The position numbers and the translations under genes are program-made. From Candidatus Woesearchaeota archaeon (GTDB lineage: Archaea > Nanobdellota > Nanobdellia > Woesearchaeales > DSVV01): 28,909 nucleotides of DNA. The stretch covers positions 1 through 28,909 of the forward strand of contig JACRKI010000006.1 of the NCBI GenBank assembly GCA_016215305.1, written 5' to 3'. The notes under the pieces are model-generated. The model saw nothing but the letters and a program-made list of their open reading frames with translations, was not told where the DNA came from and did not search any database. Below, in pieces: positions 1 to 23,967 of the stretch. How positions within the stretch are numbered: the first letter of the stretch is position 1; each line of letters starts with the position of its first letter.

Positions 1-246
1 AAGCGAGACAGCGGTTGGTGTTGGAGAACGATACGCATACGGGTATGCGCTAATAAGCTCCACCTCTAACAAACCATCCCATACTTTTTTTTGAGATATT
101 GAAATATATAAACCTTTCTGAAATAAAATTCTTGCATTCGGATTTCATCCTCATGGAGAATTTTATTAAAACATTGGCAAATTACTCCTCAGAGAGTTCA
201 TTCTTTTTGGAATATTTTTTGTTGAAATTATTCCTCTTCCATAACC

Positions 247-2336: not shown

Positions 2337-2503
2337 ATATGTATTATTTTTATAATTTTAAATAATAAATATTGGACAGCGTGTTTTCTTTTGCTAGGCG
2401 ATTTAAAACAGCGAGTTCGTGTATTCTGTGAAACTTGATGATTCAGAGCGTTGCTCGCGCGTGTTCCAAAAACTTTAAATACTATGGCGAATTATAGTCT
2501 TCT

Positions 2504-2985: not shown

Positions 2986-3063
2986 CATTTCGAAATACCA
3001 CCGGAGTGTACCTCCGGTGGACAAAGTCCACAATTGAAATTCGATAGGCGGTATTTCGTAATG
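2986..3063 (+). repeat. 78-bp palindromic element A, copy 1
   Basis: Terminal IR CATTTCGAAATACC/GGTATTTCGTAATG, inner hairpin CCACCGGAG/CTCCGGTGG; 59/78 identical to reverse complement of 7829-7906. Confidence 0.85.
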
Positions 3064-3141
3064 TGTCAAGAACCACAGGTCTCTCGAACTAGCAGACCGC
3101 TTCGCTTCATGCCACCGGTCTTTGACCGGTGGTTCTTGACA
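3064..3141 (-). mobile_element. Miniature IS200/IS605-end-like (PATE/MITE-like) palindromic element B
   Basis: 18-bp terminal IR with 1 mismatch (TGTCAAGAACCAC[A/C]GGTC); minus strand reads GTCAAGAACCACCGGTC-AAA-GACCGGTGG, resembling GTCAAnnACC-hairpin ends of IS200/IS605/ISC elements; no ORF. Confidence 0.55.
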
Positions 3142-7828: not shown

Positions 7829-7906
7829 CATTGCGAAATTCCAGATTTCATTTTTTGATTGTGGACTTTGTCCACTGGTGAAACACACCAGTGGAATTTC
7901 GGAATG
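7829..7906 (-). repeat. 78-bp palindromic element A, copy 2
   Basis: Reverse complement CATTCCGAAATTCCACTGGTGTGTTTCACCAGTGGACAAAGTCCACAAT...GGAATTTCGCAATG aligns without gaps to 2986-3063. Confidence 0.85.
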
Positions 7907-11081: not shown

Positions 11082-11179
11082 GGTTGTTTTCGTTATTTCT
11101 TAGAAGATGATCTTCTCGTATATATCTTTTCTGTTCTCTTTCTTTTAATCTCTCTTAAAAGATAATAACTAAAAATTAC

Positions 11180-11257
11180 ATGAAGATACTTTGGGCTTTG
11201 CTCAAAGGATTACTAAACGCAGCGTTTAGAAATACCTACGTCTTTCTTAGTTCGTGT
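11180..11257 (+). repeat. Dispersed intergenic repeat family C, filled copy C1
   Basis: First 37 nt identical to 19084-19120; then variable hairpin, TTAGAAATACCTA, TAGTTCGTGT. Confidence 0.9.
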
Positions 11258-11346
11258 TTTGTGTTTCTTTTTGTGTTTTTTTACTTCATATGATTTTATC
11301 AAAATTCTCGCAAACATTTAAAATAACCTCATTCTTTTTCTCTCTC

Positions 11347-13128
11347 ATGATCCGCAAACCACTCATCACGATTCTTGGCCACGTTGACCACGGCAAAACA
11401 CGCCTTCTCGATACTATCAGAAATACCACTGTCATTGACAGAGAAGCAGGCGCAATCACCCAGGCAATCGGCGCAAGCATTGTTCCCCAAGAAACAATTT
11501 TGCGCACCTGCGGAAAATTGCTTGAAAAAACCGGCATGAACCTTCTTGTTCCCGGACTTGTTTTTATTGACACTCCTGGCCACGAAGCATTCACCCATTT
11601 GCGAAAACGCGGCGGCAATCTCGCAGACATCGCGATCGTTGTTATTGACGCAAACGAAGGACTTATGCCGCAAACCATTGAAGCAATTGAAATCCTCAAA
11701 AAGTTCAAAACTCCCTTTATTATTGCACTCAATAAAATTGATTTGATTCGCGGATGGCAGGAGCAGCACGGTCAGGATGCGGCAGGATTACTCGAGCGGA
11801 TTTCACGCCAAAGTCCTGACACTGTCCAAATGCTCGAAACAAAAATGTACAGCGTTGTGGAACAGGTTTTCAAGCTTGGTTTTGAATCTGATCGCTTTGA
11901 TCGCGTGGGTGATTACACCAAACAAATTGCCATTATTCCCATCAGCGCAAAAAAAGCAATTGGCATTGCAGAATTATTAATGGTCTTAACTGCACTTGTG
12001 CAGAAATATCTCGCAAAGCAACTTGAGGTCGAAGTCAAAGGTCCTGCAAAAGGAACTATTCTTGAAATCAAAGAAGATAAAGGACTTGGCAAGACGCTTG
12101 ATGTTATTCTCTATGACGGCATGCTTACTGTCGGTGATACTCTTGTCATTGGAACGCTTGGCGAGCCTCTTGTCACAAAAGTCAAGGCATTGTTTGTTCC
12201 TGAACCGCTCAAAGAAATGCGCGATGTCAAAGGAAAATTTCTCTCTGTCAAACATGTTACTGCAGCGACAGGAGTCAAGGTTGCCGCGCCAGATCTTGAT
12301 GGCGCTGTTGCTGGCATGCCTCTTCAAGGCGCAACTGCCGCGACACTCAATCATGTGAAAGCTGAAGTTACGCAATCTATTGAAGAGGTTGTTGTTGAAA
12401 CAGATGGAGAAGGAATTGTGGTCAAGGCAGACGCAATTGGTTCTCTTGAGGCAGTGCTTGTCCTTCTTCGTTCTAAAAATGTCAAAATTAAACGAGCAAC
12501 CATTGGCATGGTTTCCAAAAAAGATATCATGGACGCAGAAGCGAATATGGCAAAGAATCCCGCAGCAGCAGTCATTCTTTGTTTTAACGTTGGACTTGAC
12601 AATGATGCGCAGCTTGCTCTCGCTGATTCTCACGTCAAGGTTTTTGAGAACAAAGTTATTTACCAATTGCTTGAGGAGTTTGAAAAATGGTTTATAGCAA
12701 AACAAAAACAAACAGAGTCCTCTGGTCTCGAGGAATTGCATCGCCCATGCAAATTGCAGGTGATGCCCAACCATATTTTCCGTAAAAATAATCCCGCTGT
12801 TGTTGGCGCGGACATTTTAGCCGGCAAACTCAAAACAGGACAGCGTCTAATGAATAAGGAAGGAGCTCCTGTGACATTTGTTAAATCTATGGAACATGAG
12901 AAAAAAAGTGTCAATGAAATTGATGCAGGCAAACAACTTGCTATCTCTCTTCCTGACATCACTATTGGCCGTCAAGTGATGGAAGGAGAAATATTGTATA
13001 GTTTTCATCCTGAAAGCGAATTTTTGGCACTCAAAAAATTCAAGAAATTTTTATCCCCTGCTGAAATTGAAACTATGAAAGAAATCGCGGAAATCATGCG
13101 AAAGGAACATCACACCTGGGGAATGTAA
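11347..13128 (+). CDS. infB: Translation initiation factor aIF5B (IF-2)
   Basis: MIRKPLITILGHVDHGKT, GAITQAIGA, FIDTPGHEAF, NKID; start moved from 11254 to ATG 11347 (TATA at 11317). Confidence 0.97.
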   Translation: MIRKPLITILGHVDHGKTRLLDTIRNTTVIDREAGAITQAIGASIVPQETILRTCGKLLEKTGMNLLVPGLVFIDTPGHEAFTHLRKRGGNLADIAIVVIDANEGLMPQTIEAIEILKKFKTPFIIALNKIDLIRGWQEQHGQDAAGLLERISRQSPDTVQMLETKMYSVVEQVFKLGFESDRFDRVGDYTKQIAIIPISAKKAIGIAELLMVLTALVQKYLAKQLEVEVKGPAKGTILEIKEDKGLGKTLDVILYDGMLTVGDTLVIGTLGEPLVTKVKALFVPEPLKEMRDVKGKFLSVKHVTAATGVKVAAPDLDGAVAGMPLQGATAATLNHVKAEVTQSIEEVVVETDGEGIVVKADAIGSLEAVLVLLRSKNVKIKRATIGMVSKKDIMDAEANMAKNPAAAVILCFNVGLDNDAQLALADSHVKVFENKVIYQLLEEFEKWFIAKQKQTESSGLEELHRPCKLQVMPNHIFRKNNPAVVGADILAGKLKTGQRLMNKEGAPVTFVKSMEHEKKSVNEIDAGKQLAISLPDITIGRQVMEGEILYSFHPESEFLALKKFKKFLSPAEIETMKEIAEIMRKEHHTWGM

Positions 13129-13595: not shown

Positions 13596-13730
13596 ATATT
13601 TTTATACGAACACGTTGCTTTGATTCGCTTGAATGCTTTGGTAGAACTAAGAGAAACTTTGGCAAGTCCTATAATTATTTTAATTTTTTTTGATTAATTA
13701 TTCTAAAGATATTCTCAAAAATAAATAATA

Positions 13731-13787
13731 ATTACATGAAGATACCTAAGTGATGCTAGTTCCTGTATTTTCTTCCTTAGTTCGTGT
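13731..13787 (+). repeat. Repeat family C, empty copy C3
   Basis: ATTACATGAAGATAC-CTAAGTGATGCTAGTTCCTGT...TAGTTCGTGT, lacking the two-hairpin insert of C1/C2. Confidence 0.7.
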
Positions 13788-13838
13788 GTTAGCGATGTTA
13801 GGCGATTCAGAAAGCTAATTTATTCATGAGAAAATAAA

Positions 13839-14010: not shown

Positions 14011-14083
14011 GCCTCCGTAGCATAGTAGCTATTGCGTTACCTTGGTAAGGTAAAGGTCGTGAGTGCAACTCTCACCGGAGGCT
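14011..14083 (+). tRNA. tRNA-Thr(GGT)
   Basis: GCCTCCG..TTACC-TTGGTAA-GGTAA..GTGAG-TGCAACT-CTCAC-CGGAGGC-T; U73 discriminator; non-canonical A18 and G55. Confidence 0.9.
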
Positions 14084-18998: not shown

Positions 18999-19083
18999 AG
19001 TGTTGAAATTCCTTTCCTCTTTATATTGTTTCTTTATTTTATTATTGACCACAATAATTATTTTTTGATATAATAATAATAAT

Positions 19084-19159
19084 ATGAAGATACTTTGGGC
19101 TTTGCTCAAAGGATTACTAACGTGTTCGTTAGAAATACCTATGCGATGCTAGTTCGTGT
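19084..19159 (+). repeat. Repeat family C, filled copy C2
   Basis: ATGAAGATACTTTGGGCTTTGCTCAAAGGATTACTAA identical to C1; ends TAGTTCGTGT; extra GTTCGTGT at 19173-19180. Confidence 0.9.
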
Positions 19160-19276
19160 ACTTTTTCTGCAAGTTCGTGTGAAAAAATTTAGTTTGTGAA
19201 AAGAATCCACATCAAAAATCCGCACAACTCCAATCAGTTACTAAAATTTATAAACCACTCCACAGAACTACACTCC

Positions 19277-19954
19277 ATGAAACTCTACAAAACATCATAT
19301 CAAGGAAATCCTAATGTTGGTCTTTATGGTTTTGCGACAGACAATTATTGTCTGCTCGCTCCAGAATTTCCGCCAGAACAAGTCAAAAAAATAGAAGAAG
19401 CACTCCACGTTCCCGCCTATCAAATCCGCGTTGCAAACAGTTCGCTTCTCGGCGCGCTTGTCACAGGAAACGATACTGTGCTTCTTATTCCATCCATTGT
19501 TCGCGAGGATGAACTTTTCCGTCTCAAACAACTCAAAATCCCATATCATATCATTTCCACAAAATTGACTGCTCTCGGCAATAACATTTTATGCAACAAC
19601 AATGGCGCGCTTGTCAATCGCGATTACAGCGCTGACACCAAGAAAATTATTCGTCAAGCACTCAACGTCACGCTTCATCCTGGAGAAATTGCGGACACGA
19701 CAGTTCCAGGAAGCTGCGTTGTGCATAACAAAAAAGCCGCTGTCATCCACGCTTTTGCAACTCAAGAACAAATCAAAGAAGTTGAAGATTTGCTTGGCGT
19801 GACTTGCGTCAAAGCAACAGCGAACTTTGGAAGCCCCTATCTCCGCAGCGGCGTTATTGCAAATTCCTTTGGAATGGTTATTGGCGAGAATTCTACAGGA
19901 ATTGAAATTGAAAACATTTATGAAGCTTTAGGATTCTTAGACCAGAATGAATAA
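19277..19954 (+). CDS. eif6: Translation initiation factor aIF6
   Basis: GNPNVGLYGFA, SSLLGAL..GN, TALGNNILCN, TANFGSPYLRSG..NSFG.V.G..TGIE; start moved to MKLYK (ATG 19277, TATA at 19247). Confidence 0.95.
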   Translation: MKLYKTSYQGNPNVGLYGFATDNYCLLAPEFPPEQVKKIEEALHVPAYQIRVANSSLLGALVTGNDTVLLIPSIVREDELFRLKQLKIPYHIISTKLTALGNNILCNNNGALVNRDYSADTKKIIRQALNVTLHPGEIADTTVPGSCVVHNKKAAVIHAFATQEQIKEVEDLLGVTCVKATANFGSPYLRSGVIANSFGMVIGENSTGIEIENIYEALGFLDQNE

Positions 19955-20876: not shown

Positions 20877-20890
20877 AGTTCTCTAAAAAA

Positions 20891-20973
20891 AACACGCACA
20901 AGGAAAAGCGCAAATACCCTAACTTGCATCACGAGATTGGAACAAGCATCGCTGAAGTATCTTTATGTAATTA
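20891..20973 (-). repeat. Repeat family C, diverged copy C4
   Basis: Minus strand TAATTACATAAAGATACTTCAGCGATGCTTGTTCC...TTCCTTGTGCGTGTT aligns with C3. Confidence 0.65.
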
Positions 20974-21299
20974 TTAAAAAAACCAAAAAAATAAATAAAA
21001 ATTATTGTGTTCGCCGGGCGATGCGTGTTCTACCTACGCAGCGAGGTGAATCAAAAGTATTCAGTTCATGAGAAAGCAACGATAAGTGAAAAATAATCTC
21101 ATTTAACCTTTAGAATTGGAGATAATTATACATTTAGAATCCCAAAAGAGTTCACGCAACAGGTGAGCAAAAGAAAAATTGAGATCATTCCTTTGGGCGC
21201 TAAAGAATTTTGTGCGTCTGTGGAATAATAAGGAAATCTAAGAAAATAATGTTTGTGATGAGTAAAACTTTATATATAACTTTATGTTACATGCAGTAT

Positions 21300-23829: not shown

Positions 23830-23967
23830 TAAAAAAATTCATGCATTCGAACAGCGGCTTGGGGCAGTTCACTTCGTTCCTGCCTGATACGTGTTCTCAT
23901 GAAGAATTTTTCACCTCTCCAATTTTTTTCTTTCATTGTATTTTTATTCATTCTTCTTCTTAACTTC

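Follow-up and report, generated by a model that had tools for sequence, protein, structure and literature searches.

Our study describes family C, a modular family of intergenic repeats in the genome of a Candidatus Woesearchaeota archaeon, starting from four copies (C1 to C4) in a window of 28,909 nucleotides (positions 1 to 28,909 of contig JACRKI010000006.1, assembly GCA_016215305.1). We consider the case evenly balanced for family C being the amplified branch, specific to this genome, of a lineage-specific superfamily of mosaic intergenic repeats that resembles bacterial interspersed mosaic elements (BIMEs), the hairpin-forming doublets of repetitive extragenic palindromic (REP) sequences known as REPINs, and BOX elements. 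Copy number, restriction to intergenic DNA, indifference to orientation and sharp mosaic junctions lead to this reading, and so do hairpins kept on one strand, reciprocal bursts of head sequences in sister species and the turnover of sites. The window is contig C57 of an assembly (hereafter G000) of 1.18 Mb in 186 contigs, with 39% GC, 83% complete and obtained from groundwater, which was compared with two sister species (G001 and G002) and two other congeners (G003 and G004). Roughly a tenth of the intergenic DNA of G000 consists of this modular, partly structured family, for which we found no published description in the literature.

The unit of the family is a half-element that reads, from its start, as an AT-box, a head (TTAC|ATRAAGATAC, or AATAATTATTG plus about 12 nt), optional hairpin cassettes set exactly at the ATAC junction, and then 21-nt modules in varying number, with the formula X8-N-GTKCGTGW-ATTT. 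The type-1 head, AAATAATAATTAC|ATRAAGATAC, with a conserved stretch of 23 nt, was searched with a 23-nt position weight matrix at a score cut-off of 16; it occurs at 105 sites in G000 against 3 in the reversed sequence used as control, the score distribution is bimodal, and the word ATGAAGATAC ranks among the commonest non-trivial words of the genome. The type-2 head, AATAATTATTG followed by TGTTCGCCARRGC, GCCTTGCCAGAGC, TGGTCAAG or GACAACG, leads into the same downstream modules in about 62 cases. These half-elements (105 plus about 62) are nearly all intergenic, and of the 676 intergenic regions that reach 30 nt, about 100 (about 15%) contain at least two modules. Downstream of the heads there are one to four modules with the 8-nt core GTKCGTGW, or its variants GTTCCTG and GGCGAWT, whose spacing peaks at 21 nt (50 cases), flanked by 20 nt (24) and 22 nt (21), with a flat control. 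The 13-nt spacer between cores consists of ATTT together with GCGWTGCT or, alternatively, a T-rich octamer, and other cassettes, such as CTAAAGCAGCGAGTTCTACCAAAGC, combine freely with the modules, so that the mosaic types head+A, head+K, head+H+A and head+H+K are all present. After the head and its one to four modules, no distinct 3' terminal module was found.

The half-elements usually lie back-to-back around an AT-rich centre. Upstream of 75 of the 105 type-1 heads, at 50-170 nt, we found modules on the opposite strand, with the forward modules at +20 to +120; almost no reverse modules occur downstream of type-1 heads, and no reverse head follows the arrays. In seven units two type-1 heads are paired head-to-head at a distance of 31-37 nt. 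The sequence-only reading from which we started had treated family C as four dispersed copies in the window. All four are real and lie where it had placed them; the family as such is genome-wide, with about 170 half-elements. The picture also grew at the loci themselves, since C3 and C4 are accompanied by opposite-strand arrays and C2 by an opposite-strand remnant consisting of a head only, with C1 standing alone. The members of the window are as follows.

2364..2470, plus strand: a further member, with type-2 head AATAAATATTGGACAGCG, then GGCGATT, GTTCGTGT and GCGTTGCT modules.
11167..11284, plus strand: C1 half-element, with AT-box 11167-11179, head ATGAAGATAC 11180-11189 and insert 11190-11235; distally a single T-rich module with core GTTCGTGT at 11250-11257, then a T-rich tail; no upstream partner array.
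13604..13679, minus strand: divergent partner of C3, read from the sequence as a type-2-like head AATAATTATAGGACTTGCCAAA, then GTTCTACC, GCGAATCAA and CGTGTTCGT modules.
13723..13810, plus strand: C3 half-element, without insert, with AT-box, head 13736-13745 and module cores at 13759, 13780 and 13801, spaced exactly 21 nt.
19045..19062, minus strand: back-to-back remnant of C2, type-2 head only (AATAATTATTGTGGTCAA), with the promoter and ATG of the NUDIX gene directly after it.
19071..19199, plus strand: C2 half-element, with AT-box, head 19084-19093 and insert 19094-19138; distally GCGATGCT at 19143, cores at 19152 and 19173, and a degenerate core at 19192.
20884..20979, minus strand: C4 half-element, with AT-box 20967-20979, head ATAAAGATAC 20957-20966 and the GCGATGCT module; distally core GTGCGTGT 20892-20899 and a T8 run 20884-20891.
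20993..21072, plus strand: divergent partner of C4, with type-2 head AAATTATTG-TGTTCGCC, then GCGATGCGTGTTC, GCAGCGAGGTGAATCAAAAG and CAGTTCATG modules.

The most structured part of the family is an insert with two hairpins. As the initial reading had noticed, C1 (head 11180, plus strand) and C2 (head 19084, plus strand) share 37 identical nucleotides followed by a hairpin that differs between them and still pairs (CTAAACG-cag-CGTTTAG in C1, CTAACG-tgtt-CGTTAG in C2), after which come TTAGAAATACCTA and then TAGTTCGTGT. In C3 (13736, plus strand) and C4 (20966, minus strand), ATRAAGATAC leads straight into YTMAGYGATGCTWGTTCC; C1 and C2 thus carry an extra segment, of 46 nt (11190-11235) and 45 nt (19094-19138) respectively, that contains both hairpins and is flanked by ATAC and AAATAC. 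In G000 the insert occurs in 16-17 copies, each placed directly after the ATAC of the head and each ending in AAATAC, beyond which the sequence resumes exactly as after a bare head; about 88 of the 105 type-1 copies are without any palindrome. The filled sites are therefore not limited to the window, and all of them reproduce the junction ATAC|insert-AAATAC|, so that the refuting condition named by the initial reading (no copies beyond these and ATAC not reproduced) does not apply. In an alignment of 14 insert copies, with 500 shuffles as control, 98.1% of the cells are standard pairs. Compensatory change was found at three pairs (six cells), one position being U-A, C-G and A-U in different copies, and the covariation score of 0.117 (0.062 +/- 0.008 in the shuffles) was reached by none of the 500. 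When the alignment was slid, pairing fell to 20-56%. Also, one stem position is either present or missing on both arms together, and a copy on contig C150 has the same architecture (hairpin, AGATT, hairpin, AATAC) with unrelated stems. A G.U pair is retained in 13 of the 14 copies; as it would be an A.C mismatch on the other strand, the structure is kept on the strand that runs from head to array, as RNA or as single-stranded DNA.

The sequence-only reading had suggested a nested micro-mobile element with a 4-bp target duplication. The pattern of filled and empty sites holds and is reproducible; two parts of that proposal, ATAC as a target duplication and autonomous movement, are hypothetical. 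ATAC...ATAC does flank the insert in all filled copies, and AAATAC may belong to the insert itself. In G000 the insert was never seen outside the ATRAAGATAC head context, so an insertion specific for ATAC and a subfamily with a long head look the same, and the head with insert may simply be a subfamily. The reading of filled and empty sites is thus supported as a pattern and not as a demonstrated transposition.

Sharp junctions are also found outside the insert. Between the loci on contigs C142 and C62, identity is 100% across 133 nt (-123 to +9) and breaks off immediately behind ATAC; the identical block runs from the distal edge of the opposite-strand type-2 head to the last base of ATGAAGATAC, and the arrays beyond it are merely similar. 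The other edge of the head is involved with a 78-nt element of about 22 copies in G000, which ends in inverted repeats of 13 bp (CATTWCGAAATAC) and holds a covarying hairpin in its interior, and which behaves as a MITE (a miniature transposable element with inverted repeats) that is nearly always fused to the next element. It abuts this head edge (GAAATG|CATGAAGATAC) in six loci, and in a seventh with the variant head CATGAATATAC. Taken together, the breakpoint of C142/C62 and the abutment of the 78-nt element make both edges of the 10-nt head places where cassettes join. We propose that copies of family C would spread and be reshuffled by copy-and-paste or recombination, with breakpoints probably at both edges of this 10-nt head, above all after ATAC. 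The process may act on single-stranded nucleic acid bearing hairpins, and a transposase of the IS200-type Y1 (HUH) class acting in trans is the only candidate enzyme that we have seen.

Other repeats of the genome lie close to the family or share parts with it. The GAAATAC end of the 78-nt element matches the 3' end of the two-hairpin insert. A mini-element with GTCAAGAACCAC ends, which adjoins one of the 78-nt elements of the window, contains CATGAAG...GCGGTCTGCTAGTTCGAG; on its minus strand, CATGAAG, 11 nt and GCTAGTTCGAG read as a family C-like head followed by a first module. Another repeat family, R2, with about 60-70 copies genome-wide, is an imperfect palindrome (AAAATTCTTGCATTCG, a variable GC stem and loop, CTCATGAAGAATTTT), and it has CATGAAGA in common with the family C head. 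Many R2 copies, on the strand of the gene, start with the Shine-Dalgarno-like GGAGRGTGA and end just before the ATG, and so they form a 5' leader of Shine-Dalgarno, hairpin and ATG in a genome that is otherwise mostly leaderless. Finally, a structured repeat of about 120 nt (GGGAACTCGGCGAAAGCCCCGCACTTCAGTGCGGGGATGAAGCC ... GATAATCCCGACGGCAAAGCCCACGCTTTTAAGCGGGGGATACGCCGTCTGGGATTATC) is inserted beside family C and R2 elements in G000. These neighbours are located as follows.

2986-3063 and 7829-7906, window: 78-nt element.
3064-3141, window: mini-element with inverted ends of about 17 bp (GTCAAGAACCAC..), adjoining the 78-nt element.
About 121-163 (plus strand) and about 23832-23909, window: R2.
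About 3380-3500 on contig C34, about 14690-14760 on contig C2 and about 3410-3470 on contig C60 of G000: repeat of about 120 nt.

The relation of family C to its neighbouring genes bears on another suggestion of the initial reading, that C1 and C2 are a shared cis-regulatory module controlling genes of translation initiation factors. Both do lie upstream of such genes and are directed at them, C1 at aIF5B (IF-2/GTP_EFTU domains) and C2 at aIF6 (eIF-6), with Trm1 and a NUDIX protein as the respective divergent neighbours. Nevertheless, C3 is directed at a tRNA on the opposite strand and C4 at the 3' end of a peptidase gene, and across the 105 type-1 copies there is no preference: both flanking genes lie on the opposite strand (tandem) in 30 cases and on the same strand (tandem) in 29, and the flanking genes are convergent in 21 and divergent in 12. 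Among the tandem intergenic regions 13.7% are occupied by arrays, against 13.5% of the divergent and 20% of the convergent ones, and the modules of the tandem regions divide into 73 that share the strand of the gene and 77 that do not. The placement relative to gene orientation is thus random, as follows from half-elements lying back-to-back. Moreover, between the C element and the start of aIF5B (ATG at 11347), and likewise of aIF6 (ATG at 19277), there is a canonical TATA box some 30 nt ahead of the ATG. The aIF5B promoter is kept in three congeners, also where the element is absent: G004 retains the Trm1-aIF5B arrangement around an intergenic region without it. The element is not a promoter or a regulator of aIF5B and aIF6, and a shared module of this kind is very improbable.

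The genes of G000 look largely leaderless, with a transcription factor B recognition element (BRE) and TTTATAAA at -37 to -23 from the ATG and no Shine-Dalgarno sequence. In 222 cases a TATA-type octamer starts 29-31 nt ahead of an in-frame ATG; averaged over the promoters, there is an A-rich BRE at -36 to -33, TTTATAAA at -30 to -23 and a pyrimidine at -1, and the tRNA genes have the same TATA-type box as the protein genes. The two promoters next to C1 and C2 are examples.

11300-11347, window: leaderless promoter upstream of aIF5B.
19240-19277, window: leaderless promoter upstream of aIF6.

We discarded the head as a canonical promoter. A TATA regular expression gave no peak at -30 of the head, and a BRE/TATA model built from 162 of the promoters of G000, at a threshold of 6 bits, gave no hit of at least 6 bits at offsets placing a start near the head; 1-2% of the loci reach 6 bits, at offsets +8 to +15. 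Family C elements are prone to be misread as promoters and also as 5' extensions of genes, since the G/T-rich arrays hold few stop codons and so produce spurious N-terminal extensions. That is the case for aIF5B, whose longest open reading frame starts at a GTG (11254) inside the C1 element; the true start is the ATG at 11347, and the GTG, with its extension 11254-11346, is spurious. Given mostly leaderless genes, the head could itself be taken for the start of leaderless micro-open reading frames (ATG AAG ATA C.., MKI..) encoding small hydrophobic or Cys-rich peptides, as few stops interrupt the arrays and frames of 20-40 codons stay open after many heads. This is hardly credible, as 22% of the heads have ATA instead of ATG, a linker varying by 3-5 nt after ATAC puts the same modules in different frames, the frame of C3 would be closed after 5 codons, a TATA at -30 is missing, and conservation is at the level of nucleotides and structure. 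The tRNA-Thr(GGT) gene that adjoins the aIF5B operon is interrupted in G003 (L196:3771-3865), immediately behind the anticodon, by about 24 nt that resemble a canonical intron and are not in the G000 copy (window 14011-14083).

Comparison with relatives indicates that the family in this form belongs to G000. Among 41 genomes of the genus, family and order, the exact type-1 head and the exact pair of cores spaced by 21 nt were found only there, and the module TTGCTGGTGCGTG had a single chance-level match in each of 2 of 56 further genomes. A 19-mer scan of public metagenome contigs gave one further true copy, in a Hainich groundwater contig, and 16-mer scans of public genome and viral contigs gave single chance matches only, the pattern being too short. 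The counts in the five congeners are these.

Module TTGCTGGTGCGTG: G000 16, G001 23, G002 25, G003 0, G004 0.
ATRAAGATAC plus GCGWTGCT: G000 36, G001 1, G002 2, G003 0, G004 0.
GGGTCCCCCTGACA, one mismatch allowed: G000 0, G001 64, G002 68, G003 0, G004 0.

These motif counts show that different heads were amplified reciprocally in the sister species. The head common to G001 and G002 consists of AATAATACCCC, a hairpin, GGGTCCCCCTGACA, about 9 nt and TTGCTGGTGCGTGT; its hairpins have widely different stems that always pair, and some heads form inverted doublets about 90-105 nt apart. Between orthologous loci of these two species we found a compensatory stem change (L221/L205), a complete swap of the head before an unchanged module (L227/L240) and complementary partial deletions of the head (L223/L202). 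The orthologous sites of C1 and C3 in G001, G002 and G004 have no such element. A different repeat of G001, a pair of hairpins (TATAGCTGAGGYGATTTA..TATCRCCTCAGTTG, then GAATGCGC..GGCGCATTC; L195:2215-2370 and L228), occupies the place that C3 has in G000, downstream of the gene after aIF5B. The aIF5B orthologues of the congeners are 76-77% identical to that of G000.

It is doubtful, yet worth considering, that each half-element is a putative independent gene for a small non-coding RNA, with transcription running outward from the AT-rich centre. Such an RNA would begin with a conserved 5' tag (AUGAAGAUAC), could carry 5' hairpins, and would have a G/U-rich body in which GUUCGUG sites recur up to terminal U-runs; it might, for instance, be the platform or sponge to which an RNA-binding protein attaches. 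The structure on the head-to-array strand, with its conserved G.U pair and compensatory changes, is what such RNAs would show, and the head is much better conserved than the body. In addition, the head has C/T at position -1 and A at +1, like the leaderless gene starts of G000, T-runs follow the arrays (for instance T8 after C4), and elements are kept at orthologous loci of G001 and G002 where the neighbouring intergenic DNA is not alignable. However, the promoter model places no start near the head, T-runs within the arrays would end many transcripts early, copies range from 1-2 to 105 between congeners at sites that are not orthologous, and a search for RNA sequencing runs found none. Nor did Rfam give a match: with Rfam 15, at gathering and E-value thresholds, the window yielded two tRNAs only and family C none, and ten loci of G001 and G002 gave nothing credible.

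The strict phasing of the 8-bp core at 21 +/- 1 bp suggests another use, in which the arrays are putative DNA sites, iteron-like and phased at two helical turns on either side of the AT-rich centre, that a sequence-specific DNA-binding protein would use for nucleoid organisation, a domain boundary or a bidirectional block of transcription. The symmetric layout around that centre and a placement independent of gene orientation would agree with this, as would a core 13-mer that is kept across three species at the divergence given above for aIF5B. We think it unlikely, because hairpin covariation with a G.U bias indicates a single-stranded form and not duplex DNA, no candidate binding protein was found, arrays are present in only about 15% of intergenic regions, two congeners are without the family, and the 21-nt period may stem from slippage of tandem units. 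We also rejected the idea that the two arms fold into one giant hairpin or into an intrinsic terminator acting in both directions, as cognate arms pair at -41.7 and non-cognate arms at -44.2 kcal/mol, both only about 8 kcal/mol better than composition controls.

As to the machinery that might move a mosaic repeat family, G000 encodes one IS200-type Y1 transposase of 143 amino acids (C153:1212-1643), with HFH and Y...Q motifs. Its element and derivatives are located as follows.

C153:1151-1690 (L257), G000: complete IS200-type element, Y1 gene between two ATACCCCGCCCCTTGGGGCGG hairpins.
C25 (about 1100) and C163 (about 1890-1975), G000: miniature derivatives of IS200.

ATAC stands at the foot of both end hairpins of this element, and ATACCCC...GGGT is common to these ends and to the heads of G001 and G002; the apparent link between family C and IS200 ends goes no further than these two motifs. 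Other partners were set aside: a RAYT/REP system, RAYT being the REP-associated tyrosine transposase, because the sole Y1 is an ordinary IS200 with its own ends, that of G002 is a different IS200 with 28% identity to it, and G001 has none; a TnpB/omega-RNA system, as TnpB (PF07282) had no match in the five genomes G000-G004; DDE, rve and tyrosine-recombinase genes, whose ends are unrelated; and the genes bracketed by the hairpin heads of G001, which are only housekeeping genes (SIMPL, Mur ligase, S15, aIF1A).

Several results weigh against family C being an amplified mosaic repeat. No mobilising enzyme tied to it was found: the Y1 gene on C153 is flanked by its own GC-rich hairpins, unrelated to family C, and the ends of the DDE_Tnp_1 (4 copies), rve (1) and Y1 (1) genes in the 83% complete G000 do not match the family. 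Nor was a Y1 gene found in G003, in G004 or in the 86%-complete assembly of G001, which has 64 hairpin heads, and for G001 this counts against the reading. Terminal inverted repeats are absent from the half-elements, whose head is unrelated to the distal end of the array, and no target duplication is demonstrable for them. In the Logan contigs of the source runs (about 5x, and too fragmented at the repeats to be informative), there was no clean presence/absence polymorphism or empty-site junction. Furthermore, the 23-nt head is much better conserved than the arrays, and at seven orthologous loci of G001 and G002 the element is kept in all and is better conserved than the adjacent intergenic DNA. 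These last two observations would be expected of a host function or of protein recognition no less than of selfish spread, and keep the functional readings alive.

With regard to known systems, REP, BIME and REPIN have been defined in bacteria (PMC2817692, PMC3116915), and in archaea only the ordinary IS200 subclass of transposases is known, RAYTs being bacterial (PMC6006769). Family C resembles them in its more than 100 extragenic copies, its mosaic of short motifs, its alternating or back-to-back units, its hairpins with compensatory changes beside conserved single-stranded motifs, and its vertical persistence with lineage-specific amplification, to which the inverted doublets of about 90-105 nt in G001 and G002 can be added. 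Unlike REPs, about 88 of the 105 copies are without a palindrome and hairpins occur in 16-17 only; there is no GTAG or CGTC tag, no RAYT flanked by the repeats (the Y1 is of IS200 type with different ends), and nothing in REPs corresponds to the tandem modules of 21 nt. The BOX elements of streptococci (boxA-boxB(n)-boxC) share with family C a composite build from a conserved terminal module (in family C the head only) and tandem internal modules in varying number, intergenic location, about 100 copies, no known transposase and related species with different module sets (PMC3049150). They differ in having no sequence similarity to it and a period of 45 nt instead of 21 nt; family C has no equivalent of boxC and an archaeal host, and the terminal inverted repeats and target duplications of BOX elements were not seen in it.

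The palindrome-associated transposable elements (PATEs), derived from IS200/IS605, are like the 46-nt insert in having two hairpins, no inverted ends and a position 3' of a fixed tetranucleotide, always ATAC for the insert, just as IS200/IS605 elements sit 3' of their target. The parallel extends to the presence of a Y1 transposase gene, ATAC at the feet of the IS200 hairpins, and ATACCCC...GGGT shared by the heads of G001 and G002. On the other hand, the stems of the insert are unrelated to those of the IS200 ends, the insert is at no other ATAC, the 64 hairpin heads of G001 occur without a detectable Y1 gene, and no excision or insertion event was seen. Unlike a MITE, family C has no terminal inverted repeats and no related autonomous insertion sequence with matching ends. 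The iterons of theta plasmids offer only an analogy, as they are direct repeats of about 21 bp, two helical turns, beside an AT-rich stretch; family C differs from them in its about 100 chromosomal loci against one origin, in having no rep gene beside it, and in arrays that point outward on either side. A resemblance of GCTGGTGCGTG to bacterial Chi or uptake sequences was dismissed because the arrays are intergenic only and follow no logic of replication strand.

Tentatively, family C could also belong to an undescribed archaeal system in which a host protein reads the 23-nt head, the optional hairpins and the 21-nt-phased GUUCGUG/GTTCGTG arrays, the type of head co-evolving with its reader. 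If true, the elements would be a family of small RNAs transcribed outward or bidirectional binding platforms on the chromosome, and the co-evolution of head and reader would have led to 105 ATRAAGATAC heads in G000 and to 64-68 hairpin-GGGTCCCCCTGACA heads in the sisters.

REP, BIME and REPIN-type systems and domesticated transposases are regarded as bacterial, and this kind of repeat is essentially undescribed in archaea. If family C, which has been reshaped independently in the sister species, is indeed a mosaic repeat, it would provide a compact system for exploring how such repeats arise, spread and persist without a recognisable RAYT. Furthermore, it raises the question of whether these repeats may be used as RNAs or as protein-binding platforms in archaea with leaderless transcription.

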